64,000 bases of DNA, taken from a virus. Below, one piece after another: positions 4,409-38,251 of the stretch. A model generated the notes under the pieces. It saw nothing but the letters and a program-made list of their open reading frames with translations, was not told the DNA's origin and did not search any database. The position numbers were made by a program, and so were the translations under genes. The stretch covers positions 80,364 through 144,363 of IMG/VR virus record IMGVR_UViG_3300027741_000025; one strand, 5' to 3'. Positions within the stretch are counted from its first letter, which is position 1. Each line of letters starts with the position of its first letter.

Positions 4409-6802
4409 ATGCCCACAAATGTAGTACTATATTCATCGGATGGAACAAACTGGAATTATGTTCCCACCAATTTCATAGATAATGCCACATCAGGACAAAA
4501 CATATGGTGTTACGGTGATAATAAATACCTATATCTGGCATCGGATGGTGGAAGCGGAAATAAAATCTACTACTCTAGTGATTTGTCTACATGGACGAGA
4601 ATATCTGCAAACAGTCAAGATAATTCAACCCTTGGTGTCGCAAGTGGAACATTGTGGTCGATCATATATGACGGAAGCAAGTTTATTTGTTTGCTAAGTA
4701 ACCAAACACCAGCAAATTCTTCGGGTAGTCCTAGTGTTTTGTCAACCTCAACAGATGGTCTAAGTTGGACGCCAGTTCCTCCTATTATCGCCGGCAGCTC
4801 AAATGCACCAAATGGCAATCCATACTATGCTAAACATTGTATGAATTTTCGTGGAGTTACCAACATATTGTATAATGGCAGTAGCACCTACATGATAGAT
4901 GGATCTTTGCGAGAACAATATCAATCTGGCTCTAACTATGTTGATGGATCAAACTATTGGAAATGCATAAGTATAGATGGAACTAATTGGACTACCGCTC
5001 CTTATGAAAGAGTAATAGTGGGGGCATCATGCTATGGTGATAATAAGTTCGTAGAAATAGCCTATGACTCAAGTAATGTCTTATCATGTTATATAATAAC
5101 AGTCAATTATGACGCTACAATAAGCTATACTAAGTATTCAAGCCCTTTTTCTTCTTACAATAATACTTGGAACGGCTTCAGCAAACAATACAGCATGGAT
5201 TATGGAAATGGTAAATTTGTAGCAGTAAGACTATCAAACCCAGCAATTATAGCTTATAGTAGTAATGCTATTAATTGGACTGAGGTTAGCATCCCCGTAT
5301 CTGGTAGTAAAATCTGGAATGGTGTTAAGTTTGGTAATGGTATTTTTATTATAAATCAATATGGTGCTGGTGACGACACATATTTATATTCATCGGATGG
5401 TATGAATTGGAATGTTGGTCATCACAGCTCACATTCTTCTTTTTCTCAAGAGGCATCATTTGCCAATGGTCAATTTGTGTTTTTTGCTGAGGACCCCAAT
5501 ACTACTCCTACACCAACGCCGACCAAGACATCTGCACCAACACCAACACCAACACCAACCAAGACATCTACACCAACACCAACCAGGACATCTACACCAA
5601 CACCAACCAGGACATCTACACCAACACCAACCAGGACATCTACACCAACACCAACCAGGACATCTACACCAACACCAACCAAGACATCTACACCAACACC
5701 AACACCAACACCAACACCAACACCAACACCAACACCAACATCAACATCAACATCTACACCAGGACCGACAGCAACTGCAACTCTCACGCTTGGACCAACT
5801 ACCCCAACTCTTACCAAGACACCAACTGCTACCCCAACTCTTACTAAGACACCAACTGCTACCCCAACTCTTACTAAGACACCAACTACAACTCCAGGAC
5901 CAACTACTACTCCAACTGCAACGCTAGGACCAACAGCAACTGCAACTCCTGCTACAACAGAATTTCCTGCAACTAAAATAAGATTTTATACCATGGAGTT
6001 GGTTTTAAAAGTTTTTGTAGACCCAAAAATTACATTTGGAAAGCTAGTTGATTTTAATGATCTTTCTAAAGATGTTGGTTTATATTTTTATAATGGCATA
6101 GGAAATAGAAATGTTGATCCAAGCACTTGTATGCCTATAAGAGCAGTAGGACAATATTTACAATTTGTTCCAAAGGCTGGTCCTGGTAATACTGCGATGT
6201 CTCAGAATGATTACAACCAAATAGTTTTAAAGAGAGAAGAGACAGAAAAAGTTACTGTGTATTTAAACAAGGTAAAACAATTTGAGTTTTATGATTATGA
6301 AAAATACGCAGTAATAGACTCAAATTCTTTATGGTTTTTCAAAGATGATAATATTACAAATAATGAAGAGTTTAAATATAGAGTCTCTAAGATAGTAATA
6401 TACCCTGATCCATTATCTGATGAAGAAATCGAGAGTTTGCCAATATTCCACGGAATTACATCTGATTGTGTGATAGGAACACCAGAACCAACAGCTTCTC
6501 CGCTACCAACACCCACACCAGAAGTTTGCATTGTAGATATTAGCGATGTCCCAGAAAACCTATATACTTTCAAAGATTGCCCAGACCCAGCAGATTATTG
6601 CTATACCACAAGCTTTATTTCTCATTTAACAAATATTTATTCAACAAATTATTCAAGAGAATGCCGCTCCACAAGCACGGGCGTTGGATACAGAACAGAG
6701 TGCTTTTCAACAAGCTTTTCTACAAGCTGCTTTTGCACATCCACATCCACATCCACATCAGCATCTCATGGCTTTATAGATATGGTTGATTTTATTCCAT
6801 GA
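4409..6802 (+). CDS. Fibre/adhesin-like protein: YSSDGxNW-repeat beta-propeller, Pro/Thr stalk, LamG/ConA-like domain, Cys/Ser/Thr tail
   Basis: Repeated YSSDG.NW / YGNGKFV blades; PT repeats; YNQIVLKRE..KVTVYLN; ATG at 4409 preferred over TTG at 4358. Confidence 0.7.
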   Translation: MPTNVVLYSSDGTNWNYVPTNFIDNATSGQNIWCYGDNKYLYLASDGGSGNKIYYSSDLSTWTRISANSQDNSTLGVASGTLWSIIYDGSKFICLLSNQTPANSSGSPSVLSTSTDGLSWTPVPPIIAGSSNAPNGNPYYAKHCMNFRGVTNILYNGSSTYMIDGSLREQYQSGSNYVDGSNYWKCISIDGTNWTTAPYERVIVGASCYGDNKFVEIAYDSSNVLSCYIITVNYDATISYTKYSSPFSSYNNTWNGFSKQYSMDYGNGKFVAVRLSNPAIIAYSSNAINWTEVSIPVSGSKIWNGVKFGNGIFIINQYGAGDDTYLYSSDGMNWNVGHHSSHSSFSQEASFANGQFVFFAEDPNTTPTPTPTKTSAPTPTPTPTKTSTPTPTRTSTPTPTRTSTPTPTRTSTPTPTRTSTPTPTKTSTPTPTPTPTPTPTPTPTSTSTSTPGPTATATLTLGPTTPTLTKTPTATPTLTKTPTATPTLTKTPTTTPGPTTTPTATLGPTATATPATTEFPATKIRFYTMELVLKVFVDPKITFGKLVDFNDLSKDVGLYFYNGIGNRNVDPSTCMPIRAVGQYLQFVPKAGPGNTAMSQNDYNQIVLKREETEKVTVYLNKVKQFEFYDYEKYAVIDSNSLWFFKDDNITNNEEFKYRVSKIVIYPDPLSDEEIESLPIFHGITSDCVIGTPEPTASPLPTPTPEVCIVDISDVPENLYTFKDCPDPADYCYTTSFISHLTNIYSTNYSRECRSTSTGVGYRTECFSTSFSTSCFCTSTSTSTSASHGFIDMVDFIP
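5505..5950. repeat. In-frame tandem repeats (24, 6 and 30 bp) encoding a Pro/Thr stalk
   Basis: Units acaccaacaccaaccaggacatct, acacca and gctaccccaactcttactaagacaccaact. Confidence 0.9.
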
Positions 6803-6803
6803 T

Positions 6804-9146
6804 TCAAGAAGATAAAATTTTATCTATATAAAAGCCAGACACATAATCGATTAGTATGTATAAGTAGTCATTCACATAATTAAATTTTAAGTCTATTATT
6901 TCACCATCACCGTAGTACAATAACGAAGTATTGGTCAAAGAAGAATTTATTTTATATAAACTGTTTCCATGAGAAGTATTCCCTGGGGCTCCACAGATAT
7001 AAACATAACCATTTTGTTCATCGATGTCCATGCTGATATGTTCCACGAAACTATTGGTCGGTTGATTATTCACTAAAGTGATAGAAGATCCAATAGTATT
7101 ATTGGAATTCACCAGAGTTACTTTTAATGTAATGTGTCCTGAAGAACTCCAATCATCATTGACTGTAGCAACATATGTCAAATCGTTAGTTGTGTTAGAC
7201 TTTATAGCTACGATATACTCACCAGAGGGTAGGGTCAATGTTTCTATTGCAGAGTTGTTGGATGTATTTATAATATGCACAACATTTGAATAAAAATTGG
7301 CTACATACAATTTATTAGAATGGGTGTTGATCTCCATAGAACCATTGGGATAAAAATCACCAGATATCGTGGTTAAAATAGAGGTTGTTGTGTAATTTCT
7401 AACTACTAATTGATTAAGACCTTCTGCTGTAAATATTTTATTGTTTACACTATCTAGCGCTGCATTAAATATAGCGTATGTGGGATCACCGTTTATTGTG
7501 GCGACAACAGAATCAGACGCTAAATCAATAATGCTGGCAGTTTTGCTTACATAATTTACAACTATTGCCTTTCTTTGAGTTCTATCCACACTAATAGTTG
7601 AGGGTTGAGCGCCAACAGTGATAACATTGCTGACAGAGTTGGTGTCATTATCAAAAACCCAAACAGTGTTGGTCTCTCCACCAGTACTGCCAGTGTTTAA
7701 TATATAAAGTTTGTTCGAAGTTGTGTCTAGATCCATTGCGTCTGGAAATGTCATTCCCAATAAAGTCAGGGATATTGGCGTGGCTGCTGGTGTAGCAGTT
7801 GGTGTAGGCGTAACAGTTGGTGTTTTAGTAGGTGTAGCACTTGGTGTAAGCGTAGATATTGCTGTTGCTGTTAGTGTAAGCGTAGGTGTTGCTGTTTGTG
7901 TATGTGTAGGTGTTGGTGTTGCTGTTTGTGTAGGTGTTGCTGTTTGTGTAGGTGTTGCTGTTTGTGTAGGTGTTGCTGTTTGTGTAGGTGTGGCAGTTAG
8001 TGTAGGTGTGGCAGTTAGTGTAGGTGTAGGTGTTGGTGTTGGTCTCACATCATCACAATCTCTCCAATCAAAATAATTATCAGAATAATATTTGAAGTTT
8101 GTTACTAATTCTCCTGCTATACAAGCTGATTGATTTTTTAAAACATTAACTCTTTTGCCCAATATGGCCACCACAGATCCCCCAATATTGATCCAGTCGT
8201 ACCCAGATTGCCGCATTACTCCGTCCTTGTAAGCAACTAACTCCAAATCAACATTGCCAGATTGTCTTGTGTTATACCAAAATGCTTTCAAAGAGCCGCA
8301 TATAGAAAAGCTATCACTATTAGAATCTCTTATATTTTTGATATACATAACAACGGATTCATAGCCAGTACCAACATTATCCCCGCCCCACTCATACCAG
8401 GGCAAAGCGGGTGCATCAGGGTATAAACGTTTTTTGCACCAACCAACTTCATGTCCCTGTTCAGAACCATAAGAAATTGATGTTCTTGTGTCTAAATCTA
8501 ATCCATCTAAGAACTTATATCTCACTACTATAAAATCGGCATCTATAAAACCTACATCTACTATTGGTGTGGCTGTTGGTGGTATAATTGTGGGCGATGG
8601 TGTTATCGGGCAGCAAGCACAATTGCATATAGGCTTAAGTTTTGTGCACTCCACCAGACTCTCAATTGCAAGCTTAAGTCCTGTGCCTTTTTCTACTCTT
8701 ATAACAACAGCATTGTTGCCATCTACTATATCGCAAGCATAGTTGTAGTTTTCGTTGTATGGAACAAGATCTTTTGTTCTTTCGTTCCACTCTCTGAGAT
8801 TATTCTGGAAGTAAAATCTGACGTCTTTGGATATCGGGCAAGATAATCCACAAAGATCAAAGTGCCCGAATTTATTTGGAATTTGATCGAGAGAGCCAGC
8901 ACCATAACAATCTTCCCAAGATATAAATATTGTATTAACACTAACGCCTTGTGTTGGCTCTGGTGTCGTGAGTGGACAACAAGACATATACTCCAGATTA
9001 TTCCAGTGTTTAACTCCATCGCCAATTTTCAATTTTCCCGTGTTTATCTCAAACCCAGGTTCACCCAAAGCTAAAATCGGATTAGCATCATACCACTCTT
9101 GAAAAGTTCCATTTCTCAGATGTATTTGCGTGAATGGCGTTGTCAT
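6804..9146 (-). CDS. Fibre protein: Mtd_N domain, shared modules, PT stalk, YVTN-type beta-propeller
   Basis: [40 protein letters not shown] (Mtd_N); NKLYV.N..SN.V.II blades. Confidence 0.75.
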
Positions 9147-9207: not shown

Positions 9208-10452
9208 TCATGATACATATCCAACAAACTGAAGGCTATTAACTGATGATTTATTGTTTTTAATTTCCATCTTATAGTATCTATAAGATGCCGGGGATGT
9301 TATGTTATATTTATAAATCCCCGAATAGGATGTGTCCGACCCAGATCTATTATCAAGCGAATTCCATGTAGAATTATCATTTGATCCATATAAAGTCCAT
9401 GCTGTGAGTCTGTAGCCCCTGTTGTAGTTATCCGCATATATTCCACTTGTAATGTTGTAATAGCTTAGAGTGACGGCAACTCCGAAATCAAGATATCCAA
9501 CTCCTCCTGTTTCAAAAGGACCCCAAGCAGATCGGGAAAGATCATAATATTTGTTTAGAGAGCTTACGGAGCTACTTTGGTTAGGGAATAATCCAAAATC
9601 ACTACTAATATTTGCGCAATATCTAAACCCGAGATTTGAAAAAACTCTAGCGAAACTTGACCTATGACCTGTCCCAGGTGTTTCAACAAGAACAGAGCCA
9701 AAACCATCAATACATTTGGCTGTTGGAAACAATGTATATCCTCCATGAAGTTCACAAGGAGTACTAGGACTTTCATACCCCAAAATTTGCATTTCCCCAA
9801 TCTGAAAAGCTTGTTCATTACGCAGGTCAGACACACTTCGCCCGCCTTTAGTAACTATTAATCTATAGTTTTTATAAGCCGTAGCACCAGAAACAGAATA
9901 CTCTGAGTAAGAACAATTTCGGGCGAGCTTGCTTGTTGCGTTCGGAAATTTACCTTGAGATGTTCTGGCATCTACAGTTGTCCAAGTAACACCATCGTTT
10001 GTTCCAGACAAATACCAGTCTTGGGGAGTTTGGTCACTCATATCACCATATTGGTTTGTAATATCGTCAAATAGATTTCCAATAACCCCTGCTCCAAAAG
10101 CATTATACATCCTGTATTTTGTAATTACCACAGGAAGACCAAAACTAAAATATGCCTTAGATCTTGATACATAACCAGTTGTTCCTCCTCTCATTGAGTT
10201 TTTATAAAATGAATCATAAATACTTTGGTACGGCAAAATTCCTGTAAATAAATTATTAACATAATTTATACTTTTTGTAGTCCCATCAATTAAACTAGAG
10301 TTATTGTATCTATTTCCAGAATAAATTATTGCTTCTGTATTATTTACATAATTATCACTAACAGAAAATTTATAGTATGACTTATGAGTAGAACTTACGT
10401 GTGTGTTATCATACATTGTTCCTCCTCCTACTAAAATTCTTTCGGTCGGCAT
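9208..10452 (-). CDS. Tandem discoidin (F5/8 type C)-like domain protein
   Basis: Two copies of P.dW.l.GsNDg.tW..lD.R ... Y.yYrl; paralogue of the C-terminal half of 10462-13065. Confidence 0.75.
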   Translation of the reverse strand: MPTERILVGGGTMYDNTHVSSTHKSYYKFSVSDNYVNNTEAIIYSGNRYNNSSLIDGTTKSINYVNNLFTGILPYQSIYDSFYKNSMRGGTTGYVSRSKAYFSFGLPVVITKYRMYNAFGAGVIGNLFDDITNQYGDMSDQTPQDWYLSGTNDGVTWTTVDARTSQGKFPNATSKLARNCSYSEYSVSGATAYKNYRLIVTKGGRSVSDLRNEQAFQIGEMQILGYESPSTPCELHGGYTLFPTAKCIDGFGSVLVETPGTGHRSSFARVFSNLGFRYCANISSDFGLFPNQSSSVSSLNKYYDLSRSAWGPFETGGVGYLDFGVAVTLSYYNITSGIYADNYNRGYRLTAWTLYGSNDNSTWNSLDNRSGSDTSYSGIYKYNITSPASYRYYKMEIKNNKSSVNSLQFVGYVS

Positions 10453-10461: not shown

Positions 10462-13065
10462 TTATGTTAAATAACCTTGTAATTGAATATCACTAATTTT
10501 TCCTAAGAAAAAAGTAGTAGAATTAACACCATCAGTAACGCCATATCTATTTGAGCTATCTGTAACAGATATCTTATAGTAAAAATAAGAGTCTGGTGAT
10601 GCTATGGCAAAAGTTGCCGAAGAACCAACTTCAACAAGGGTTCTGGTATCGAGCAGCGTCCATGAGTTAAATGTATTGGCTCCATATACTTTGAATGAAT
10701 ACTTTACCGGAGCGCCGGTAATGTTATCAAAATCAGCCCACATTTTATATGATGTTAATATTATTGGATAGTCAAATCCAAGATATCCATCTTTTGTTCT
10801 GTTTGTTGGCACCCCATTGGCACTACTTGCGACTTCAAAACTCCATTGACCTAGCTTAGCTAGATTTCCAGTTAAGCCAAGAATTGTTCCCATATTAAAT
10901 ACAGTACCAAAGGAATCAGAGTTTGTCAAAACACCAGAATTATTAAGATATTTAACTGTTGGTAATAATGTGTTGTATCCATGCAATGCACAAGGTGTTG
11001 TTGTGCTTTCATATCCCCAAAGCTGAATTTCACCAATTTGAGTATCATAATTACAGAGACCGAGTGTTGCTGTTGGTGTTGGAGTTTTGGTTGGTGTTAG
11101 AGTTTTAGTTGGTGTTGAAGTTTTAGTTGGTGTCGGTCCAGGCAATCTAGTTGTTGTTGTTGGTGTTGTTGTTGGTGTTGTTGTTGGTGTTGTTGTTGGT
11201 GTTGGCGCAAGGGTTTCTGTTGGATCGGGTGTTGAATCAGGTGGTGTTGGTCCCAAACATCTATAGCCATTTCTTCCCCCTGTAGAAATAACAAGTTTAT
11301 ATACTTTATAAGCTACAGGCGCCGGTATTGTGAATTCAGAGTAACTACTCAAACTTGGATCTGTTGATGTTGCATATGGCAATCTTGGTTGATTTGATCT
11401 GGTGTCAACTACATTCCAAGATATTTCATCGTTACTACCATGCAGCGTCCAAGCTTGCGGAGTTTGATTACCAATATCTACATATCTGCCTTCAACACCA
11501 TAATTAGCTAAAAATCCATTCCACATTCTATACTTTGTTACTACAGTTGGAATTCTAAAATCAAACAAAAATATTGGGAAAGAATTATTACTAAAGCTAT
11601 ATGAATCGCTTAACACATATTGAAGAGGAAGTTCACCATTAAGAATACAGGCATTGGCGGGATTTACTACAGTATTAAAATACTGTCTGTAGTCAGGATT
11701 TATTAATATTGGTGGATTGTATTTTACTCCACCACCAACCAACGCCCTAGGCGTGCCAGGCGCTGCTGTTAGCGTTGGTGTTGCTGTTGGACCAGGTGTT
11801 TTTGTTACTGTTGGTGTGGGCGTTACTGTTGGTCTGAGTGTTGCAGTCGGTCTAGGTGTTGCTGTTGGACCCGGCGTTTTGGTTGCCGTCACCGTTGGTG
11901 TTGGACCAGGTGTTTTAGTTAATGTTGGTGTTGGACCAGGTGTTTTAGTTAATGTTGGTGTTGGACCAGGTGTTTTAGTTAATGTTGGTGTTGGACCAGG
12001 TGTTTTAGTTAATGTTGGTGTTGCCGTGGGTGTTGCTGTTGGTCCAAGTGTAGCTGTGGGTGTTGCTGTTGGTCCAAGTGTAGCTGTGGGTGTTGCTGTT
12101 GGATAATAACAAACATCTATATTTGCTGTAAATGATCCGCTATTATCACCTCTTACATTATCGTTTGTTGCAAGGTAAAGTCTACCTGCTCCGACAGCAA
12201 AAGATTCAAAAGAAGACCCAGCACAAAACGGTTGACCGCTTAACCCTATTTTGGCAATAATTGCCTCATGTCTACATGGGCTTATAACATTGTCGATATT
12301 GTATAAAGAGTTTGGTAACTGGGCATCCGTTAGTCCATCCGGATCAGAATTATAGTTCGGGCTGTTCATGAACGAATTTACTATTCCGGTTGCATTTATT
12401 TTTAAGTAACCAGAAACATCAATTTCACTATCTTGCCAGGGTATAGTAGGATCAATAATAAACGATTTTTGGCAATAAGGAGTTGATGTTGGTGTTGGTG
12501 ATATTGTGGTAGGACAACAAGAACAATTGCATATAGGCTTGGGTTTTGTACACTCTACCAAACTATCAATTGCAAGCTTGAGCCCTGTACCTTTTTCTAC
12601 TCTTATTACAACAGTATTGTTGCCATCTACTATATCGCAAGCATAGTTGTAGTTTTCGTTGTATGGAACAAGATCTTTTGATCTTTTGTTCCATTCTTCA
12701 AGGTTATTTTGGAAGTAAAATCTGACATCTTTTGATACCGGGCAAGATAATCCACAAAGATCAAAGTGTCCGAATTTGTTTGGAATTTGATCGAGAGAAC
12801 CAGCGCCATAGCAATCTTCCCAAGATATAAATATCGTATTGACACCTGGTGTTGGCTCTGGCGTTGGCTCTGGCGTTGGCTCTGGCGTTGTGAGCGTACA
12901 ACAAGACACGTAATCGAGATCGTTCCAACTTTTAGTTCCATTGCCGATTTTTAATCTTCCTGTGTTTATCTCAAACCCAGGTTCACCCAAAGCTAAAATC
13001 GGATTAGCATCATACCACTCTTGAGAAGTTCCATTTCTTAATTGTATTTGCTTGAATATTGTCAT
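10462..13065 (-). CDS. Fibre protein: Mtd_N, shared module, LecA/PA-IL-like lectin, PT stalk, two discoidin-like domains
   Basis: Mtd_N motif; PWQDSEI...[19 protein letters not shown]...DNSGSF; [14 protein letters not shown]. Confidence 0.75.
11890..12105. repeat. 30-bp in-frame tandem repeats (PT stalk)
   Basis: gttggtgttggaccaggtgttttagttaat x4 plus gtgggtgttgctgttggtccaagtgtagct x2. Confidence 0.9.
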
Positions 13066-14222: not shown

Positions 14223-14671
14223 AACCAGAAAAAGTAGTATTTCTTGATATTGACGGTGTTTTAAACACCGATAAGCATTTAAGAAAATTTGGTCGAGATT
14301 ATATTGACCAAAAATTGACTTCGATACTAAGAACTATAGTGCTTCAAACAAAAGCAGAAATAGTACTTAGTTCAACGTGGAGGTTAGATGAGTATGCAAA
14401 AAATTTAGTTAAAAAAGCTCTGGAGATCAAAGATTTAAAGTTTATATGCTGTACACCGCATATTGAAAGCACAACAAAAAAAAGAACACACAGATCAGAA
14501 GAAATCAAAAAATGGCTTGAAAAACACAAAAGTGTCAAAAAATACGCAGTGCTGGACGACAGAGATGACGCAGGCTATGGAATTGAAAAAAGTTTTTTTC
14601 AAACAGATCCCAGAGTAGGCTTAACTTATTCAATAGCAGAAAAAATAGTGAGTCATTTAAATGATGACTAA
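14219..14671 (+). CDS. HAD-family phosphatase (Swiss-army-knife RNA-repair type)
   Basis: VFLDIDGVLN, IVLSSTWR, R.EEI..WL, YAVLDD. Confidence 0.85.
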   Translation: MKPEKVVFLDIDGVLNTDKHLRKFGRDYIDQKLTSILRTIVLQTKAEIVLSSTWRLDEYAKNLVKKALEIKDLKFICCTPHIESTTKKRTHRSEEIKKWLEKHKSVKKYAVLDDRDDAGYGIEKSFFQTDPRVGLTYSIAEKIVSHLNDD

Positions 14672-15795
14672 AAGCCTATTTTAGGCTTTTCTTCTTTTTT
14701 GGAGTAATTTTCTTCTTCGTTGTATATCTCAGCCAAAGTCATAGGAACATCTGTTTTTCTCTTAGACTTCATGCTTTTAAATATTTTATTGCAATTTTCA
14801 GGAGACAGAACATCAAATTCATGCTCTATTAAAAGCCTGCCTTTTCTCACAAGAGCTGAATCTATTTTTTCTTTGTTTATATTGAACGTTGCGATTATTA
14901 AAATATTTAAACAATCTCCAAGAACACCATCAGTTATGTTTAATATGTTGCTTATCGCATTGTTATCCTGATTCTCTCTGCTCCTTAAAGCTTTTTCGGC
15001 ATCCTCCAACAAAAGTATGGAGTTTCTATAGCCCATTATAAAGCTTAAAAAATCAGGATTAGTCAGTTGATCGGCAGAGCCAGAAGACAAATAGATTACT
15101 TTTCTATCTGTTTTGGTTGTCAAATATTTTATGAAAGTACTTTTACCAGTACCTGGCTTACCCGATAATAAAACCAAGCCATTTTTATTTTTCTTTGTAT
15201 AATCAATTATTTTATCAAACTTATCAGAAGCAGATTTTCCATAATTTAATTCCAGGTCTATTTTTTTATCTGGAAGCTTCACTTCAAACTTTTGTGTTGT
15301 AAGCATTCCATCCAAGCTACAAAGCAAATAGACATTTTTTTTCTTTTTATCTTCTGCCAAGAACTCCATACATTCTTTGACTTTATTTAAGGTTTCTTCT
15401 TTTTGATAAAGTATCTTGCAATTATAATTTTTGAAATCTTTTTTATTTATATTGACGTTTGATTCAACGTCATCAGCCTCCGACCCATCCAGAAAGAAAT
15501 CTATTTTGTTAATTAAATCTTTTTTGCGAAAAAATTGAATTACCAAATCTTCGTATTCATAGCAAGACTCTATATTGTTTATTTTATTTTTTCCATTATC
15601 ACTTTTTTCTAAATCAAAAGTGAACACCTTGACTGCACCTAACTTCTCAAGATTTTTAAAAGTTGCCTCGCCTATATCTGCGATAATTTCAAAAACATAA
15701 GGCTGTGCTTGAAATTTTTCACAATAATTATAAAAGATATTTAAATAAGTTCCATAATCGTGCGGTGGCGATTTTTTACAGTAACTGTTTTTCAT
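14668..15795 (-). CDS. AAA+ ATPase
   Basis: Walker A GKPGTGKS, Walker B LLLEDAE, SRH IDSALVRKGRL, C-terminal KIGF. Confidence 0.9.
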   Translation of the reverse strand: MKNSYCKKSPPHDYGTYLNIFYNYCEKFQAQPYVFEIIADIGEATFKNLEKLGAVKVFTFDLEKSDNGKNKINNIESCYEYEDLVIQFFRKKDLINKIDFFLDGSEADDVESNVNINKKDFKNYNCKILYQKEETLNKVKECMEFLAEDKKKKNVYLLCSLDGMLTTQKFEVKLPDKKIDLELNYGKSASDKFDKIIDYTKKNKNGLVLLSGKPGTGKSTFIKYLTTKTDRKVIYLSSGSADQLTNPDFLSFIMGYRNSILLLEDAEKALRSRENQDNNAISNILNITDGVLGDCLNILIIATFNINKEKIDSALVRKGRLLIEHEFDVLSPENCNKIFKSMKSKRKTDVPMTLAEIYNEEENYSKKEEKPKIGF

Positions 15796-21739: not shown

Positions 21740-21740
21740 A

Positions 21741-27048: not shown

Positions 27049-30000
27049 ATGACATCAACAACTCCAATATCCGGTAATTTATTCGTTTGTGGGTATAATC
27101 GTACCCACCAACTTGGATTGCCCGATATTTGGAGCTCCTACTTTAGTTTATTAAAAACCAGTTCTGATCGATGGATAGATGCTGCTGCAGGCGGAACATA
27201 TTCGATTGCAATCCAAGAAGATGGCACTCTATGGGGAACCGGTGGTCTCCCAGGATACTCTGGGACGATTGGATTGGGAAGAACAACAACTGAAAGCTTT
27301 ACCTTAATCAACACAAAAAAATGGGTTAGTGTGGCTGCCGGTGTAAACCACACTATTGCTATACATGATGATGGAACACTGTGGGGCACCGGCACTAATG
27401 TTAACGGTCAACTTGGCTTGGGAAACACTAATAATGTTGATGAATTTACAAAAATAAGTAGCGACTCATGGATAGGTGCTGCTTGTGGCGCCACACACAC
27501 ACTTGCTATACGCAGTGACGGAACATTGTGGGTAGCAGGAGTGGGTTTTGACGGTCAGCTTGGGCTTGGTAACAGTGTTTCTACAACCTTTGGATCATTT
27601 GTGCAAATAGGAACAAGCAAGTGGAAAAGTGTGACTGCAAATTATATGAGGACAGTTGCAATACGCAGTGATGGTACTTTGTGGATCACCGGAGCCGGAT
27701 TCTCATCAAGGTCATATGACTTTATACAAATCAGTGAAAATACATGGGATAAAGTTCGTTGTAGCCTAGCTGTAAATCGTGTCGGGTGCGTTTTTGCAAT
27801 TCGTACCGATGGAACATTGTGGTGTTTTGGAGAAGGCGGAACTCTAGGTCTGGGTGATTACAACCGCCGCGACTCATTGACGCAAGTTGGTAATAACACA
27901 TGGAAAGATGTTAGTTGCCACAACAGTCACACCATGGCAATCAGAAGCGATGGAACACTATGGGCTACAGGAAATAGTTCGAACGGCAAGCTTGGTGCCG
28001 GGAGCGTATCTTTAAACCAATATTTAACTTTTATACAAGTGGGAACTTATCTTGATAATTATTGGTCAAAAGTAGTTACTGGTCCAAATCACACATTGGC
28101 GATTTCTCAACTGCCGCCGGCTCCAACACCTCCACCAACACCTGAGCCTGATACAGGAACTCCAAAAAATGGTTATTTATTTTCTGTGGGTTTTAGCCGC
28201 ACAAGCAAATCAATAACTAGTCCGTTTTCAGGACTAGGTAAAGATACAAACCAGTCTTATCTTTCGCAAATTGGAGCGGATGAGTGGGTAAGCATTTCTA
28301 GCGGTTTTGGACACACAGCAGCTATAAAAGCAGACCGAACACTTTGGACAACTGGTTATAATGAATTTGGACAATTGGGTCTTGGAGATAAAATAAACAG
28401 ATCTTCTTTTGTTCAAGTTAGCGCAGAATCTTGGTTGAAAGTGGCGACAGGAAACGCAGCAACATTTGCAATAAGGAATGATGGGACGCTTTGGGCAACT
28501 GGCGACAACCGAAATTTTCAACTTGGACTTGGCGATAATGAAAATAGGAAGAGTCTTACACAAGTCGGAACAGATTCTTGGGTTGATGTTTCATCTGGCG
28601 ATGGTCATACAATTGCTATTAAAAGTGATGGAACGCTTTGGGGGGCAGGATGGAACCAAATGGGGGAATTAAGTCTCACCGACGCAGATGGCAATCCAAA
28701 ATTATTTTTTCACGCAAGAGTTATGACTAAAATTGGCAATCAAACATGGAATTATATTTCAGCTGGTGGTAGGTTCATCATAGCAATCAGAAGCGATGGA
28801 ACATTGTGGGGATCAGGAGCCAATTCTTCAGGACAGCTTGGGCTTGGATTTAAAGATTTTAGTAAGACGACTTTAACTCAAATCGACAACGGAGTTTGGT
28901 CGAAGGTAGCTGCGGGTTTTTACAACACCTTTGCTATAAAAAACGATGGAACTCTATGGTGTGCTGGGGGTAATACATTTGGGCAACTCGGACTTGGCGA
29001 TAAAACAGATCGTGCTCGTTTAACTAAAATTGGAGTTGATTATTGGAGAGAAGTATATAATTACTGGGTAAACACCTTCGCCATCAAAGCAAATAAAACT
29101 CTTTGGATTTCCGGAGACAATAGGCTGGATGCTGACGGCGACCCTTACGGACTAATTCTAAATGGTGTAGATCGATCTTCTTTCAACCAAGTTGGAGTTG
29201 GCTGGACGAAGGTTTCTGGGAACAATAGGTGCATGTTGGCATTAAAAGAAAACATACCAACACCAACTCCAACTAATACACCGGGACCAACAGCCACACC
29301 AACTGCAACAAAATTTAAGATAACACCTACACCAACAACTACGCCCACCAAGACACCCGGACCAACAGCTACACCGACCGCTACAGCTACACCAACAAAG
29401 ACACTTGGACCAACAGCTACACCAACAAAGACACTTGGACCAACAGCAACACCAACAAAGACACTTGGACCAACAGCTACACCAACAAAGACACTTGGAC
29501 CAACTCCAACTCCTACTGTTAAAAATATTTCAAAAACTGCTCCTCCAACAAGAATTATATTTAAAAATTACACACAATTAGAATGGTATGATTCCAATCC
29601 CATATTAGCTGTTGGAGAAGCTGGTTATGAAAATGATGCTGGCGGTTTGAAATTTGGCGATGGAGCTAATCGTTGGAGAGAACTTCCTTACAGTTGCCAA
29701 AGAGGTGGATGTGTGGTTTCGACGCCAACTAACACTGCTACACCAACAGCTACACCAACAATAACAGCTACACCAACAATAACAGCTACACCAACAATAA
29801 CAGCTACACCAACAATAACAGCTACACCAACAATAACAGCTACACCAACAATAACAGCTACACCAACACTAACTGCTACACCAACACTAACTGCTACACC
29901 AACACTAACACCAACACCAACACTAACTGCTACACCAACACTAACTGCTACACCAACACTAACTGCTACAGCCGCAAACGAATACTACTGTGTTAGGTTT

Positions 30001-30927
30001 AGAACAACACAAACACCTACACTAACCAATACGGCTACTCCTACACCAACTAATACGGCTATAATAACTTCTACGCCTGCAATAACTTCTACGCCTGCAA
30101 TAACTTCTACGCCTGCAATAACTTCTACTCCAGCACCAACTCCTGGACCACATGCTGCTGATTTTATAGTAATAAATTATAATTATCCATCTGAGCTAGA
30201 TTTAAAAACTGATACAATTATCGATTATCCTGATGAAATTGGAAGAATAACTGCAGGTTCTTGTCGTATTATATTTGGAGAACCGGATATTAAAAGAGGG
30301 CAAATGATCTGGGGTGGGGCACCTGATGATGGAATTGATTCTTATCTTATAAATGTTAATAGCATATTTGTCCCCAGTTATACTACATTTACTTTATGTG
30401 TTTTCGCTAGGGCATTTTGGTACGCTAATCCGGATCCCGAAGGATCTTTGATCAGAATAGAACTAACTGCTTATAAGGGTGGAGAAATGAGTAAAGAAGG
30501 AACTCATTGGATAAATACTGGCGGAGAAATAATTTCAAGTGAAGATAAGACATATAAAGTTGACGGACCAGAACAACCCACATGTGATGGTGATTTCCAA
30601 AACTTAGTGCATATTAAATATCACGATAATGGTTTTGGTGCAGGTGCTGGCGTTGCTGACTGGATGGATCCAAAGGATCCACTTAAAACTTGCTATCCTC
30701 CTTGTTCCGGGACTTGTACTTATCACTGCGACACAGATAATGGAGGAACTTGGCGTCTTTTAAATAGTAATTGTTCTCCTATCAGCTATTGTGATTGTCA
30801 TCCAACATTAGTGCCTGAATGGGTAACAGAATGCGATAATGGATATTGCGAAGCAGGGTACCATGATCTTTGTTATATACCATGTAGTGATGAGTTTGGT
30901 GGGCATAGTCCTTGGACAAAACCATAA
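27049..30927 (+). CDS. Fibre/adhesin-like protein: two RCC1 propellers, PT stalks, internal Mtd_N, ADFIV module, Cys-rich tail
   Basis: About 12 AI.sDGTLW.tG.N..GQLG repeats; [17 protein letters not shown]. Confidence 0.8.
29380..30130. repeat. In-frame 30-bp and 18-bp tandem repeats (PT stalks)
   Basis: acaccaacaaagacacttggaccaacagct x4; acaccaacaataacagct x6; ataacttctacgcctgca x3. Confidence 0.9.
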
Positions 30928-31025: not shown

Positions 31026-32975
31026 ATGATGTCAGAAAGTTTTTGCATACCATCAAATGATTTTGATCCCAACATACACGAATTGATCGCCAAGCATTCA
31101 AATTCTCAAGATTGCAATGCAGGTTGCGGAGCCACACCAACACCAACTGCAACAGCTGTACCTACTAATACTACCACACCAACTAATACTGCCACACCAA
31201 CTAATACTGCCACACCAACTAATACTGCCACACCAACTAATACTGCCACACCAACTAATACTGCCACACCAACACCAACTAATACTGCTACACCAACAGC
31301 TACACCAACTAATACTGCCACAACAACACTAACTGCTACACCAACACCAACTAATACTGCTACGCCAACAGCTACACCAACTAATACTGCCACAACAACA
31401 CTAACTGCTACACCAACACCAACTAATACTGCTACGCCAACAGCTACACCAACTAATACTGCCACAACAACACTAACTGCTACACCAACAGCTACACCAA
31501 CACCAACTAATACTGCTACGCCAACAGCTACACCAACACCAACTAATACTGCTACGCCAACAGCTACACCAACCAATACTGCCACAACAACACTAACTGC
31601 TACACCTACTAAGACACCTGGATCAACAGCCACACCAAACTGTCCAGGCAGTAATTTGATACTAAATGGAGATTTTGAATTTGATGTCCCTCAATCTGAT
31701 GGTGGTACCGCCCAACATTGGAATGTGCACAATGTGGACGTAACATCAATAGAGCTAACGGGACCTAATAAAAATGTATGGATAGATTTAAATTCTTGCT
31801 CTCTAGGTTATATCGAACAGTCTTTTTCTACTATAATTGGAGAGAGCTATGTAGTAAATTTTAATATGGCGGCTAATAATCGATGCACCCCTTCTAATCC
31901 TTGCGAAGAAGGAAGGCAAGATAATACACAATACAGAAAAGAATTTTTTGTTAATTTTGCAAATACCTACTGGGTCCTGGTGTTTGATATGACCGATACA
32001 CCAAATTTAATTCCAGGTAGACAATACGATTATGCTGGGATGGGATGGATTCCACAATCCATGGTATTTACCGCAATAGATAATATTACAACTTTAAGAT
32101 TTGTAAGCAATTGCACAAATTGTGGCTGCTTTGGTCCAGCAGTAGATTGCATTCAAGTTTGTGGTATTCCAGGACCAACCATGACACCAACACCTACTAA
32201 TACATCAACTCCTACCGCCACACCCACTAAGACACCAACGCCCACACCAACTCAATGCCCATGCCCAGGATTTCCAGCATTTGATGGATCTTCATCTACA
32301 AGTGGAACATATTACAAAACATGCACCATAGTTGACAATGATACTTGTTCGCCAAATGGTAATAGAGTAGTAAGTTTTGTATGCGAACAAGGACAATCTG
32401 GAGTAGTAACTGCTGGCACAGGAAGCTATGTTGGTGATGTGGGACAAATTATATCTGTTCCCTCTTCTTGGTTGCAATCAAATCCTCTAAATACTGCGAC
32501 ATGGAATTCTGCAACATATGATGGTAATTGCGGAAATTCACTTGGAGATAAAATTTATTACGAACTTAGTGATTCTGTAATTGGTGTTTGCCCAACAGCT
32601 ACGCCAACACCCACCAAGACACCAACAGCAACACCAACACCAACACCTACACCAACTAAGACAGCAACACCCACACCAACTAAGACACCTACAGCTACAC
32701 CGACAGCCACACCAACAGCTACACCGACAGCTACGCCGCCGCGAACAGCCACACCAACAGCAACACCAACAGCTACACCAACAGCTACACCACCGCCAAC
32801 AGCCACACTAATGACAAGTACAGTTTGCTATGATGACGAGTGCAGGTCGGCGTGCGAAGTTAATTACTATGATGGTTCTTGTTACCATGAAGGCTTCTGT
32901 GGACCATCCGGTGCCACCAAGGTAACATTTACACTTGGCGGACTTCTAACAGATTGTTGCTGCGCCACCACTTAA
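31026..32975 (+). CDS. PT-rich protein with DUF642/galactose-binding-like domain and two Cys-rich modules
   Basis: NLILNGDFE...IDLN...IEQSFST..G..Y.V.F...FTA....TTLRF.S...GPAVD. Confidence 0.7.
31130..31640. repeat. In-frame 18-bp and 72-bp tandem repeats (TPTNTA stalk)
   Basis: ccacaccaactaatactg units and larger nested units. Confidence 0.9.
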
Positions 32976-33224
32976 ATTATTATCAAATTCAATACTATAT
33001 AAATTGTTAATGGATCCCATTTTTTTTATGTTTTTTAATATGTGGCGCAGCAACAATCTGTTAGAAGTCCTCCAAGTGTAAATGTTACTTTAATAACGCC
33101 GGAGCCGCTGCAGGAGACTTCATGGTAACAAGAACCATCATAGTAATTAACTTCGCACGCCGACTTGCACTCGTCATCATAGCAAACTGTACTTGTCATT
33201 AGTGTGGCTGTTGGCGGTGGTGTA
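32786..33224. repeat. 183-bp inverted repeat formed by the 3' ends of two convergent genes
   Basis: Arms 32786-32968 and 33042-33224, 16 mismatches by manual count; a more diverged second pair lies at ~32255-32600 and ~33500-33845. Confidence 0.95.
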
Positions 33225-36200
33225 TTAGTCGGTATAGCAGTTGGTGTAGCAGTTGGTGTCTTAGCAGGCGTGGCAGCAGGAGTCTTAGTTAGCGTTGGTG
33301 TTGGTGTTGGAGTAAATGTTGGTGTTGGAGTAAATGTTGGTGTTGGTGTTGGTGTTGGTGTTGGTGTCTTAGTTAGTGTGGATGTTGGCGTGGATGTTGG
33401 TGTGGATGTTGGTGTGGATGTAGCTGTTGGTGTTGGTGTTTTGGTAAGTGTTGGAGTTGGTGTCTTGGTAGGTGTGGCTGTTGGTCCTGGTGTAGCTGTT
33501 GGGCAAGGCCCACCAACTACCGGATTGCTGAGCGACCAATAAACTTTATCTCCAAGTGCATTTCCACAACTACCGTCATATGTTGCAGAATTCCACGTTG
33601 CAGTATTTAGTGGGTTTGATGTTACCCAGGAAGAAGGAACAGATATTGTTTGACCTACAAGTCCGTTATAGCTTCCTGTGCCAGCAGTGACTGATCCCAA
33701 TTGTCCTTGTCCACACACATAACTTATTGTAATGGTGCCATTCGGCGTACAAAGATCATTATCAATTATAGTGCATGTCTTGTAGTATGTTCCACTTGTA
33801 GATGAAGATCCATCAAATGCCGAAAATCCTGGGCATACACATCCAGTAGCTGTTGGTGTTGGAGTTTCTGGTCCTGGTGTGGCTGTTGGAGTAGCTGTTG
33901 GCGGGGGCGTAACTGTTGGTGTTGGTGTTATTGCACCTCCACAGCAAAAAGTTATTCCGTCTATTTCATTTGCCAAATTTCCTCTTCCTAAGCAGACATT
34001 GGTATCTGAGAGGACTATGTATTCAGTCACATCTGTGTGGCAGCGACTTATTGGAGGACCAATTAAACACTTTAATTTAGATGCCATTGTCACACAATTT
34101 TGCTCAGACGGTATTAAATTAAGCCCAGCTATAGTTTCTTCTGGTATTGTCACCACTTGTACAGACAAAATTGCGCCGCAGTCCGGAACACAACAATAAT
34201 CGGCTTCACAAGAATATGGAGATGTTGCAACAATGTTAGGCGCATCTCCAAAAGAATTTAGATTTATTTCTTCTACAAAAATTTCTTTAGATTCATCCCA
34301 TGTGCCACCAACTAAGCCTCCAACATAAAAATCATATTTTGCCAAATCACATGCATGACAAGCAGAAAAAACAAACTTCAAATTACTAATGCATCCTGGT
34401 GTGGACGTTGGTCCAGGTGTTAGTGTTGGAGTAGCTGTTGGTTCAAGTGTTTCCGTAGGGGTGGCTGTTAGTGTTGGGGTAGCTGTTGGTCCAGGTGTTT
34501 CCGTAGGGGTGACTGTTAGTGTTGGAGTTGGAGTTGGTCCAAGTGTAACTGTGGCTGTTGGAGTTGGAGTTGGAGTTGGAGTCTTGGTTGGTGTAGCTGT
34601 TGGCGTCTTAGTTGGTGTGGGTGTAGATGTAGGTGTTGCTGTTGGTGTAGCAGTTAGTGTTGGTGTTGGTGTAGCAGTTAGTGTTGGTGTTGGTGTAGCT
34701 GTTAGTGTTGGTGTAGCTGTTAGTGTTGGTGTAGGCGTTGGAGTTGGGGTGGCTGGATTTGGCTCACACCAAACTTGACAAGTACAACTGCTTGTGCAGT
34801 GCTTAGATGAGTCATAAGATAGATTAGGACATCTGCATCCTGGATTGCAGCCATCTTTATCTACTGTATACACATCATCTATATCCCAATAATAATCACA
34901 CACTCCACACGGACCTGTGGTTGGTGTAGGCGTTGGTGTTGGAGTAACATAATATCCCATACAAAACTCATTGCTGTAGCACAAATATTTTGGCAAAATT
35001 GTGGCAGTTGGAGCTGGGGTGGTGGTGGGAGTAGCAGTTGGGGTTGGTGTTGGCAGTAATGGACAATAGGTAATAGAAGAATAATAATAACCGCTATTAT
35101 CTAGTACATATATGTCATTTGGTCTTAAATAAAGTCTGCCTGCGCCTGGACTTCCTGTGTAACTTGAACCTACTGAAAAAGGAGATCCAGATCCTATTCT
35201 TCCAATAAGTTTCATATGACACTCAGAAGGCATTGGAGAAACACCGCCAAAGTTAAAACATCTAAGACCTATAGGGGTAGTATCTCTATCTATTCCATCT
35301 GGATCTGCTATATCTCCGGCTTCGTCCCAAACTGCTGTTCCTGTAGAAGATATTGCTATCGTACATTCGGGGAGTACATCCACACCAGTATCTTGCCAAT
35401 CTCTGGCACAATCCACAGTGAAGTTTGTTGTTATTGTCCCAATATCCATTTTTTCAAAATTAATATAAGAAACAGGGGGAATAATGCTCGAAGAAAGTTT
35501 ATTTTCAATGTTTTCACATACCAATTCAGATTCGGAAACTGACAAAGAAGCCGGATTAGGAACTATCAATTGTGTCTCAGAGTCAAGATCTACAGATATA
35601 ATTTTACAACTACCATTTGCCCATTTCCACATATCATAACCCTTGGTTGGATCCATACCAAATCTTTTACTTGGTGGAAAAGTAGCATTCAATCCAGGCT
35701 CCCACTCCTTGGTCATGTCATCTAAAATTGTGTGAATTCCATCTGCTTTTAGCCCTGTGTTTATACCTACGGTATAGTATTTATTCCATATCAGAGCAGG
35801 ACCTATTACATCCAGAACAACTGTGCCCGTAAAGTTTTTTCCAGAATAAATAGTGAGTCTTGAACCAGAATATATGGCAATTGAGTCAAATGTTGTGTTG
35901 GCAGCATGATTAAAAGCTAAATTATTATCAGGATATTCTCCTATAGAAACATAATCATCTGCATCCAATTTACAATTTGTAGTATGATCATCAGCAAATT
36001 GAGGTCTTTCGTACCAGGTGCATAAAATATGATCGTTAAACAATGCCCCAGTAAAGTGAACATCTCTTGCCCCCAATTCAGGCTTAGGTGTCGGAGGTAT
36101 TACTATGCACTTTTGAGGACAAGCCATTCTAAAACAAACTTGACAATTAACATCAGATGTTACAGAAGGTGTGGATGTTGGCGTTGAGGTAGATGTTGGC

Positions 36201-37576
36201 GTTGAGGTAGATGTTGGCGTTGAGGTAGATGTTGGCGTTGAGGTAGATGTTGGCGTTGAGGTAGATGTTGGCGTTGAGGTAGATGTTGGCGTTGAGGTAG
36301 ATGTTGGCGTTGAGGTAGATGTTGGCGTTGAGGTAGATGTTGGCGTTGAGGTAGATGTTGGCGTTGAGGTAGATGTTGGCGTTGGTATTGGCGTTGAGAC
36401 GGGTATTAAAGATTTTATCGCCATTGTAAAAGCAGAACCAGGACCCACTAAAACCCATGTATCAGATCCTATCTGAACTGGGTCATATCGATCAGAGGTT
36501 GTATTGTCTCCAACTTGTCCGCTGGAGTTATATCCCCATGCCCATAGTGTACCATCACTCTTTATGGCAGTTCCGTGGTTCCAACCTACTCTTGCTGATA
36601 TCCAAGCATCGGATCCTATTTGTACAGGATGATCAACATAATAAGGGCTACTTATTCCATTTCCTAGCTGCCCTGATATATTAACTCCCCACACCCACAT
36701 TGTGCCATTATTTTTTAACGCCACACTATGTTCACCAACATGAGCATAAGCCGATTGCCAGTCGGAATCAGATCCTATTTGAACAGGCGAATACCTATCT
36801 ATGTTTGTTCCATCTCCAAGAGCCCGGGAACTATTTTTACCCCAAGCCCAGAGTGTACCATCACTTTTTATTGCAACGGTATAATTTCCCCCTGCACTCA
36901 CCAAATTCCAAGCATCAGATCCTATTTGAACAGGTGAGTGTTTTCCAACAGTAGTTCCATCTCCAAGTTGTCCGTATGTGTTATCTCCCCAAGCCCATAG
37001 TGTACCATCAGTCTTTACTGCAAGAGTGTGTTTAGCTCCAGTGGTCACAAAATTCCAAGCATCAGATCCTATTTTAATAGGCACAAGACTACCGGTGACT
37101 GTTCCATTTCCAAGATTTCCATGTGTATTATCTCCCCAAGCCCATAATGTTCCGTCATTTTTTATAGCAAGAGTGTGATTGTTTAGAAATTCACCTTTTC
37201 CAGTACTTGCCAATTTCCAAGTGTCAGATCCTATTTGAATAGGCACAAGACTATCAGTGACTGTTCCATTTCCAAGCTTTCCATGTGTATTATCTCCCCA
37301 AGCCCATAATGTTCCGTCATTTTTTATAGCAACGGTATAGCCATATCCTCCACTAACTGATGTCCAATGATATGATCCTATCTGAACAGGCGAATATCTT
37401 TCAGTAGTAGTTCCATCTCCAAGTTGTCCGTATGTGTTATCTCCCCAAGCCCACAACACTCCGGACGAATTGGTTTGTATTGATAAATCATTTTCAAGAT
37501 TAATAAAAGGCTTAGGTGTTGATTTTGCAACACTTTGATTTTTAGAAACTCTATGTATTTTCTTTATCTCAAACAT
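33035..37576 (-). CDS. Large fibre/adhesin-like protein: RCC1 propeller, PT stalks, LecA-like domain, several Cys-rich modules
   Basis: 7 [13 protein letters not shown] repeats; DWQDTGVDV...LIGRIG..PF.VG...[13 protein letters not shown]. Confidence 0.8.
36174..36384. repeat. Perfect 18-bp tandem repeat x11
   Basis: gatgttggcgttgaggta repeated with no mismatch (TSTPTS). Confidence 0.95.
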
Positions 37577-37606
37577 ACTTTATATATCAGTTATTAAACA
37601 AATAAA

Positions 37607-38251
37607 TCAAGGAGATATAACTCTAATTAAACTTCCATAAATAATTGCATAACCTGTATGAGAGTCAGCAGTGCTAGGTTTTGACACACTAAAACTAACT
37701 ATAGTTCCCTCATAAATTGCATTTTGTGGAATTTCCAAAACATGCCTTGCTCCCGAACTGTTACTCTGAAGTATGGAGTCTTGGTAATAAGCCTGATAAT
37801 CTTGATGATTTCCAAACCTTATCACAGGACTATCTCCAGGAGATTGTATTGTTTTGGTCACAATCTCCATGGAATCTATTAAAAACATAAAATCAGGGGG
37901 AACTTCAAATATATCCGTCTCTACGATAGTTTTAAAATCTATTACCGAAGATCTGACTGAGGTCTTTTGAACAAAATCAGCATTATCACCTAAAATTAAA
38001 GGACTTGACGCTTGATTTGCATAGTTTAATTGTGACCAATAGTGTATTCCGTCGCCTATTTTGTACAAACCTGTGTCTATTTCAAAACCAGGCTCACCAG
38101 AATCCAACAAAGGATCTTTATTAATCCACTCTTGGGCGGTTCCTCTTCTGAATTGAATTAATGCTTTTAATTCTCTTTGATAACTCACCTCGCGTGGCGT
38201 GATAGAATTTGATACTCTTGGTCTTAATTCGCTCATTTTTTGCTCCATCAA
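37607..38251 (-). CDS. Mtd_N-domain protein with beta-sandwich C-terminus
   Basis: IQFRRGTAQEWINKDPLLDSGEPGFEIDTGLYKIGDG..W..LNY. Confidence 0.8.
   Translation of the reverse strand: MMEQKMSELRPRVSNSITPREVSYQRELKALIQFRRGTAQEWINKDPLLDSGEPGFEIDTGLYKIGDGIHYWSQLNYANQASSPLILGDNADFVQKTSVRSSVIDFKTIVETDIFEVPPDFMFLIDSMEIVTKTIQSPGDSPVIRFGNHQDYQAYYQDSILQSNSSGARHVLEIPQNAIYEGTIVSFSVSKPSTADSHTGYAIIYGSLIRVISP

Follow-up and report, generated by a model that had tools for sequence, protein, structure and literature searches.

Modular proteins on Pro/Thr-rich linkers, probably host adhesins, and their re-assorted domain orders in a clade of very large contractile-tailed phages

Small folded domains joined by Pro/Thr-rich (PT) linkers make up a family of proteins encoded in the IMG/VR virus record IMGVR_UViG_3300027741_000025, and the members of this family that lie in the last part of the record are the subject of this study. 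The DNA analysed here (the window, 64,000 nt) comprises bases 80364-144363, i.e. the 3' 64 kb, of this linear 144,363-bp record. An initial annotation, made from the letters of the window, had described at least eight genes between 4409 and 38251 as Cys-rich, PT-stalked fibre proteins of a jumbo phage that reuse one set of modules, and had proposed that PT-coding DNA serves as universal joints of a module-shuffling system that is free of recombinase and reverse transcriptase (RT). Module sharing was analysed by all-versus-all BLASTP of the SEG-masked window proteins and by a Pfam scan. As a result, seven of the eight named genes were found to have non-linker modules in common at significant E-values, but the eighth, g4358, has only linkers in common with other window genes. 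The family does occupy 4409-38251, but this range is too narrow, as members were also found at window positions 42925-44202 and in at least five PT-linked genes upstream in the record.

Two of the genes, g6804 (6804-9146, minus strand) and g10462 (10462-13065, minus strand), begin alike, with an Mtd_N segment and a Cys-rich domain, here Cys domain A (8592-9146 and 12508-13065, respectively), and these parts are 83% identical between amino acids (aa) 3-171 and 2-176 (E 6e-91). The remainder of g6804 consists of an ADFIV module (8049-8540), a PT linker (7776-8042) and a beta-propeller (6804-7775), and that of g10462 consists of a PA-IL-like module (12109-12462), a PT linker (11755-12102), discoidin-like module 1 (11272-11727), a second PT linker (11065-11253) and discoidin-like module 2 (10462-11040). 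In the DNA, the common part forms a direct repeat, 82.8% identical over 622 nt, which starts 46 nt before the start codon and extends into the PT linker. The gene between them, g9208 (9208-10452, minus strand), encodes a stand-alone discoidin-like pair with no PT linker, matches phrog_17517 ('tail protein'), and starts at the point that corresponds to the end of the first PT linker in g10462.

Farther along the window, g27049 (27049-30927, plus strand) encodes two RCC1 propellers (27049-28113 and 28168-29253), a PT linker, an internal Mtd_N (29554-29667), a further PT linker (29722-30150), an ADFIV module (30157-30678) and a Cys-rich C-terminus (30679-30927) attached without a PT linker. In g31026 (31026-32975, plus strand), a long PT linker (31161-31619) is followed by a DUF642 module (about 31638-32168; aa 244-378), a PT linker, Cys module X (32277-32585), a PT linker at 32592-32807 and the C-terminal Cys module Y (32808-32975). 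The convergent gene g33035 (33035-37576, minus strand) encodes RCC1 (36407-37504), a PT linker, module A (35441-36142), a PA-IL-like module (35063-35422) and then, each preceded by a PT linker, a Cys module (34760-34990), module M (33941-34390, aa 1066-1212, with 10 invariant Cys in the alignment), Cys module X (33512-33820) and Cys module Y (33035-33202). The C-terminal 865 nt of g31026 are an inverted duplicate of the 3' end of g33035 (73.6% identical overall), and the 3' ends of the two genes form an inverted repeat (32751-33259) whose 226-nt arms (32751-32976 and 33034-33259) are 88% complementary and lie 57 nt apart, with a second arm pair (355 nt, 79%) further out. This repeat resembles an inverted partial duplication and could form a large cruciform or promote inversion.

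Three further genes complete the set. In g4358 (4409-6802, plus strand), an N-terminal repeat module (aa 18-379) is joined through a PT tract (about 5495-5956) to a conserved C-terminal domain (5960-6802) that is weakly LamG-like and has a Cys- and Ser/Thr-rich tail. A small Mtd_N protein (E 5.9e-12) is encoded by g37607 (37607-38251, minus strand) and is kept in all relatives examined, with identities of 80% in L028, 66% in L033 and 43% in L029/L030 (contigs of other phages carry the prefix L). Finally, g42925 (42925-44202, minus strand) encodes a Cys-rich protein of 425 aa whose conserved ends (aa 1-43 and 277-425) enclose a swapped middle, and no PT tract stands at either junction in the window copy.

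Several module assignments of the initial annotation were borne out. Mtd_N (PF18454), assigned to four genes, is above the Pfam cut-off in g6804 (aa 8-45), g10462 (aa 7-44) and g37607 (aa 32-68), and the internal copy of g27049 (aa 836-873) reached 25.7 bits against a cut-off of 26.3 in Pfam and 31.5 bits in a separate profile search. The ADFIV module is common to g6804 (aa 203-366) and g27049 (aa 1037-1210; 33% identity, E 1e-12) and belongs to phrog_24956, a family of unknown function. RCC1-like propellers are well above cut-off in both g27049 and g33035 (WD40_RLD 311 and 255 bits, RCC1 177 and 192 bits, respectively), and the two Cys-rich modules proposed for g31026 and g33035 are 77% identical for X (aa 418-520 and 1253-1355) and 87% identical for Y. 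For other modules the sharing held but the name did not. The module called LecA-like is common to g10462 (aa 202-319) and g33035 (aa 719-838; 34% identity, E 1e-10), but PA-IL (PF07828) scores only 12.6 bits on it against a cut-off of 22.5 (E 0.15); one weak concordant Atlas cluster was obtained at rank 8 (score 0.93), with PA-IL on 17% of its members. The discoidin-like pair is likewise common to g9208 and g10462 (aa 501-598 and 676-836; E 2e-23 and 2e-15), but F5/8 type C reaches 23.3 bits against a cut-off of 28.2 on g9208 (E 7.6e-5), and g10462, homologous to g9208, has no direct match. LamG is also a sub-threshold name (Laminin_G_3, E 0.095), and DUF642 in g31026 passes marginally (28.7 bits against a cut-off of 27).

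Structure prediction added little to these assignments. The ADFIV model had a pLDDT of 53.5, and its best VIA matches (TerD, Z 6.3; cohesins and pilin-type beta-sandwiches, Z 4-5) did not exceed the common beta-sandwich level, so no fold was assigned; the PA-IL-like model (pLDDT 29.6) was unusable. Profile searches with these two modules against PDB sequences gave nothing meaningful. Word-based homologue searches returned one match for ADFIV (P0001) and none for module M, and a metagenome scan with the module M alignment found one already-known contig and one short contig only. In scans of viral contigs, the Cys X/Y region matched PT low-complexity sequence only, and nothing was found with the C-terminal domain of g4358.

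Few relatives of this phage are present in databases, and those used here were recovered by scans with flanking core genes and by protein look-ups. Their core genes are 85-95% identical to those of the window in aa and 80-88% identical in nt (12-20% nt diverged), and the relatives with different architectures are separate species-level lineages. Architectures are not fixed across them: syntenic genes of close relatives carry different module orders. After g13080, where the window has three genes (g10462, g9208 and g6804), L018 and L019 have one, with the order Mtd_N, Cys domain A, PT, module M, PT, PA14, PT and a g6804-type propeller; in this gene both ends of g6804 are retained and the middle is replaced by PT, module M, PT, PA14 and PT. 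At the same locus, L022 and L023 have Mtd_N, Cys domain A, PT, M, PT and another domain. The C-terminal domain of g4358 is 86-88% identical in L018 and L023, where the N-terminal module before the PT tract differs. The g33035 orthologues of L028 (6282-9338) and L033 (10001-13504) start with the same N-terminal peptide, but RCC1 is replaced by an N-terminal FGE-sulfatase domain and the PA-IL-like module by a YVTN propeller, and the last ~570 aa are missing. Four relatives have differing middles between the conserved ends of g42925, two of them including module M: L028 has module M, PT and a Cys module, L030 has module M plus others, and L033 and L029 have a different module, N. One middle module of this family occurs also in a 920-aa PT protein of L028, and the middle of the window copy has a match of 50% identity in an unrelated high-GC phage contig (L037, 2788-3822). 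At the position of g27049, L012 has a 247-aa protein composed of Mtd_N, PT and Cys domain A that ends in a PT tract. Within a lineage the architectures are stable, as two proteins of relatives, P0003 and P0002, are letter-for-letter identical on 6 and 9 contigs, respectively, from ENA, JGI and Logan assemblies.

Other features of these loci were recorded in the relatives. In L018 (11730-11764; also L019, L020 and L021), the gene that matches the ends of g6804 is split at a TGA that comes after a run of six T (GTT TTT TGA T); the propeller frame is regained if one T is skipped, and the 587-aa product is identical on 6 contigs, so that a fixed frameshift mutation and +1 slippage at the stop codon, as in prfB, are both possible. 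Near its fibre locus L018 carries, in addition to what the window has, a LAGLIDADG-like gene and an N6/N4 DNA methyltransferase (8035-8859 and 14428-15225), and such mobile nuclease genes may contribute to local recombination. In the more distant relatives L029 (6800-10000) and L030 (500-1650), a g4358-like gene directly adjoins g37607-like genes, which means that the 31-kb block 6804-37576 (helicase, ATPase, glycosyltransferase and most fibre genes) is elsewhere or absent there and points to a large rearrangement or insertion bounded by fibre genes. A small gene family (window 20499-21221; L022, 950-2269; L033, 16430-17140; L028, 5501-5959) has a conserved N-terminal domain to which, in some relatives, C-terminal extensions are joined by PT tracts, and one such extension holds a BP74_N-like module that is also present in a protein of the record's baseplate gene block.

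PT tracts were called with a strict caller across the 144-kb record, which gave 45 tracts, 4,560 nt in all, distributed over 12 genes. The tracts are tandem arrays, each built on a unit of its own of 12-72 nt: the array of g4358 (5495-5956, plus strand) has a 24-nt unit with 94% matches over 7.6 copies and then 30-nt units, that at 36174-36384 (minus strand) has 11.7 perfect copies of an 18-nt unit (100% matches), and that at 11894-12023 has 4.3 perfect copies of a 30-nt unit. Arrays whose units are 96-100% identical indicate recent local slippage. Across genes, the tracts form a degenerate dispersed repeat in both orientations, 60-75% identical over ~200 nt. The longest exact run common to the tracts of two genes, (ACACCA)n between the 5495-5956 array and a g33035 tract, is 34 nt, and six gene pairs have at least 24 exact nt in common, where codon usage of the whole genome predicts 0.5 such pairs and that within the tracts 2.8; the exact runs between genes thus exceed synonymous resampling. 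Codon use inside the tracts is more uniform than outside (CCA 0.71 versus 0.48, ACA 0.60 versus 0.51), which is explained by tandem copying of units. A PGFTYP motif recurs within PT linkers of unrelated genes and genomes (G000:C1:47114-51516, equivalent to L003:9114-13516; L023:2880-4547; L033:16430-17140), a hint that linker pieces themselves are shared. Linkers also come and go by themselves: the PT linker of g10462 at 11065-11253 (~60 aa) separates the same two discoidin-like modules that are directly fused in g9208, indicating that PT tracts are gained or lost independently of module exchange.

As repetitive DNA of this kind can mislead assembly, the differing module orders might be chimeras of metagenome assembly. 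Arrays reach ~450 nt and may be mis-assembled in length, and tract lengths taken from short-read assemblies may be inexact. Module order is another matter, for the exact runs between genes (at most 34 nt) are shorter than usual assembly k-mers, the multi-contig identity of P0003 and P0002 spans three independent sources of assemblies, and L028 and L033 independently give the same architecture. Assembly chimeras were accordingly rejected as an explanation, and we consider them extremely improbable.

The breakpoints of these rearrangements lie largely at PT DNA. The conserved DNA block between the window and L018 (5666-7835) begins within the PT tract of g4358 and ends within that of g6804; the N-terminal block common to g6804, g10462, L018 and L022 starts 46 nt before the start codon and extends as far as about aa 185, within a mixed PT linker; and the inverted duplication of g31026 and g33035 begins in the PT tract before Cys module X. 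Among 61 automated clusters of high-scoring segment pair ends, 26 fall at most 10 aa from a strict PT tract, where 15.5 were expected (P about 0.001), and by eye roughly 28 of about 35 junctions are near PT tracts. At most junctions, with exceptions, nucleotide homology begins or ends in or beside PT DNA.

Whether PT DNA does more than mark these boundaries is a separate question. One answer is that it has been selected as a genome-wide set of in-frame joints by which receptor-binding modules are actively and frequently shuffled with no dedicated enzyme. Breakpoints within tracts, a repeat family dispersed in both orientations over at least 12 genes, the greater codon uniformity inside tracts and the excess of exact matches of at least 24 nt are all to be expected on that account, but unit copying accounts for the codon uniformity, units differ among tracts, and no two genes have more than 34 nt in common. 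Nor does the age of the exchanges suit an active process, as the duplicated modules within the genome are 17% and 26% diverged in nt, the relatives that differ in architecture are already 12-20% diverged in core genes, and two relatives' proteins are unchanged on 6 and 9 contigs. Some junctions, moreover, have no PT tract. We regard this account as unlikely, and the proposal of universal joints is not supported: only six gene pairs reach 24 nt, every tract has its own tandem unit, and several junctions occur elsewhere.

The enzyme-free part of the proposal fared no better. RVT_1-type RT, RecA, resolvase/invertase and tyrosine recombinase genes were all searched for and none was found in the 144-kb record, but this covers about 29% of the genome, so that the phage cannot be called recombinase-free or RT-free on these grounds, and homologous exchange would require a general recombinase in any case. 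What remains of the proposed system is re-assorted modules with breakpoints at PT DNA. Shufflon-type short inverted crossover sites were not found either; the long inverted repeats are diverged gene duplicates (79-88%) or degenerate PT DNA (~70-75%). A shufflon-like or diversity-generating retroelement (DGR) mechanism was rejected for the sequenced part of the genome only. The unsequenced 71% might encode a dedicated diversifier (a DGR RT or a site-specific invertase) acting on some of the genes, so that module shuffling would be only part of the diversification. The C-type-lectin fold is the usual target fold of DGRs, and it is the fold of the FGE-sulfatase domain carried by the g33035 orthologues of L028 and L033, while a DGR target protein has Mtd_N as its N-terminal domain and the 3' ends of g31026 and g33035 form an inverted repeat. 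Against this, the 144 kb yielded no RT, resolvase or tyrosine recombinase, FGE-sulfatase (PF03781) had no match in the window genes at E <= 0.01, and the arms of the inverted repeat are 12-21% diverged, unlike active inversion sites; such a diversifier appears very unlikely. The FGE-sulfatase gene of L028 and L033 adjoins the conserved small Mtd_N gene.

The genomic setting is that of a very large contractile-tailed phage. CheckV gives 29% completeness for the 144-kb record, which implies a genome size near 0.5 Mb. The record carries a T4-like major capsid gene, 72.6% identical to its counterpart in the 595-kb uncultured phage LR756511.1 (L034), and, upstream, a contractile-tail baseplate block with a wedge subunit (phrog_219), Tail_P2_I, a Phage_base_V spike and a 1623-aa protein; other PT-linked proteins are located within this block. 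From the completeness estimate, the capsid gene and the baseplate genes, jumbo phage was a fair description. The window itself encodes SNF2 and DEAD helicases, an AAA ATPase, PhoH, a dNMP kinase, a patatin-like protein and several glycosyltransferases. No tRNA genes were found in the 64-kb window, and the MscL-like gene has no close bacterial relative, so that neither pointed to a host. Searches of LR756511.1 with Mtd_N, g37607 and the SNF2 helicase returned no match to any of them; true divergence, another genetic code and search sensitivity are candidate causes of this, despite the 72.6% capsid identity, and LR756511.1 was accordingly of no use for comparison with a complete genome.

In this setting, annotation-level evidence suggests display of the PT-linked proteins on the virion: many PHROG families of tail fibres, tail spikes, hyaluronidases and structural proteins have N-termini that match the Mtd_N segments, and a PHROG annotated as 'tail protein' is matched by the discoidin-like modules. 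The alternative is that they are non-virion proteins that work inside the infected cell or following release, for instance by remodelling or binding host surfaces as lectin-like factors, by aggregating cells or as decoys, with the RCC1 propellers in an intracellular role. Around these genes are others for replication and nucleotide metabolism (SNF2 and DEAD helicases, AAA ATPase, dNMP kinase), and the baseplate block is 18-50 kb away; half of the eight have no N-terminal Mtd_N, and PHROGs places phage RCC1 proteins under nucleotide metabolism, by name only. Huge phages, on the other hand, commonly scatter structural genes. Translations of all eight N-termini contain no hydrophobic signal-like segment, long linkers bearing Cys-rich and lectin-type modules are a typical feature of extracellular display, and the Mtd_N and discoidin-like matches point to tail proteins. 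A purely non-virion role thus seems improbable, and virion-displayed adhesins are the reading we favour, with moderate confidence.

Taken together, we conclude that these genes probably encode modular, virion-displayed host-adhesion proteins of a very large contractile-tailed phage, the repertoire of which has been diversified by mosaic evolution. Each protein would consist of small beta-rich or Cys-rich binding modules (RCC1 and YVTN propellers, discoidin-like, DUF642, PA-IL-like and several unnamed Cys domains) strung on extended PT linkers, which the many glycosyltransferases of the phage may O-glycosylate; binding of glycans by the modules is likewise putative. Diversification would proceed by three routes: genes are partly duplicated inside the genome, whole modules are replaced, inserted or lost between related phages, and PT arrays grow or shrink by slippage. 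As all genes read PT DNA as ACN-CCN, two tracts that pair remain in frame, and a crossover anywhere within such DNA would yield a functional linker. General recombination, encoded by phage or host, or illegitimate joining with subsequent selection would bring about the exchange itself, with no dedicated diversity-generating device. In this role PT DNA is plausibly a permissive, frame-preserving joint that offers tens of near-identical bases to general or microhomology recombination, and mosaic evolution of host-recognition proteins fits the data better, in our judgement, than a dedicated shuffling machine.

Several observations weigh against this interpretation. Four of the genes (g27049, g31026, g33035 and g4358) lack an N-terminal Mtd_N, and with both fold predictions poor, the binding functions proposed for the modules derive from weak or generic matches. 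No PT tract stands at either swap end of g42925, at aa 1210 of g27049, at aa 712-719 of g33035 or in g9208, and most pairs of PT tracts have fewer than 20 identical bases in common. Junctions at linkers would, moreover, be expected from selection for folded chimeras alone, so that a causal role of PT homology may or may not underlie them. A bolder version of the mosaic interpretation, which we put forward tentatively and hold to be doubtful, is that microsatellite-like PT DNA is kept in this clade as a genome-wide, frame-locked recombination scaffold through which a dozen or more adhesin loci are supplied from a shared module pool, that glycosyltransferases of the phage itself O-glycosylate the stalks into mucin-like fibres, and that host range evolves by linker-guided domain exchange rather than by point mutation or DGRs.

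A search of the literature on PT-linker phage fibres found no paper. The adhesion devices of Streptococcus thermophilus phages appear, by analogy of organization, to be the closest described case: their adhesion proteins have carbohydrate-binding modules separated by collagen-like linkers of variable length, related phages have been typed by module combination, and DNA that encodes the repeats borders the variable regions (PMC13207995; PMC5601072, citing Duplessis and Moineau 2001). The Tal and antireceptor extensions of S. thermophilus and lactococcal siphophages resemble the window proteins in carrying several small binding modules on low-complexity repeat linkers, in combinations that differ between close relatives. 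They differ in that the window linkers are Pro/Thr rather than Gly-X-Y, that the window phage is a huge myovirus with a T4-like capsid whose modules are spread over a dozen genes and not one or two tail-tip proteins, and that its anchors are Mtd_N or absent rather than gp27-like, with many Cys-rich modules. A gp27-like Tal or Dit N-terminal domain had no Pfam or PHROG match on the window genes, whose N-termini are Mtd_N, RCC1 or unassigned.

In the T-even long tail fibre adhesins gp37 and gp38, swapped specificity segments are reportedly bordered by conserved short motifs (Tetart, Desplats and Krisch, 1998). The likeness lies in short coding motifs that are conserved between the variable segments and may serve as small recombination sites for swapping host specificity between related phages, but the T-even motifs are Gly-rich or His-box motifs in a single adhesin domain, whereas whole folded domains at long low-complexity linkers are involved in the window. 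Escherichia phage CBA120 (TSP1-4) and Klebsiella phage K64-1 have branched sets of receptor-binding proteins with a conserved N-terminal anchor. The window genes similarly include paralogues with a common N-terminal part and differing distal parts (Mtd_N in four, Mtd_N with Cys domain A at 83% in two); unlike in those sets, no beta-helix depolymerase domains were detected in the window fibre genes, and attachment to the virion is putative. With Mtd of Bordetella phage BPP-1 and its DGR, the proteins have in common Mtd_N and a presumed purpose of varied receptor binding, but the window genes lack the C-terminal C-type-lectin variable region, no RT or template repeat was found in 144 kb, and variation appears to arise by exchange of whole modules and not by targeted mutagenesis. 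Outside phages, the PT-rich linkers of bacterial glycoside hydrolases and cellulosomal proteins are extended, often O-glycosylated, and join catalytic and binding modules that have been shuffled in evolution; those proteins are secreted cellular enzymes, whereas the window proteins are phage-encoded and have no signal peptides. New with respect to these known cases are the PT joints, the distribution of the modules across a dozen loci of a huge myovirus, the unnamed Cys-rich modules and the Mtd_N anchors.

To our knowledge, almost nothing has been established about host recognition by huge phages, and this clade shows unusually clearly how a large putative adhesin repertoire is built and re-assorted, with the same small domains occurring in different genes and orders in phages whose sequences are otherwise about 15% different. 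If PT DNA does guide the exchange, it would provide a simple, enzyme-independent design rule for frame-safe domain swapping, which could help to engineer the receptor-binding proteins of phages and to predict from sequence how plastic a host range is. Otherwise, the locus would still be a good natural catalogue of portable binding modules, together with several unnamed Cys-rich domains.

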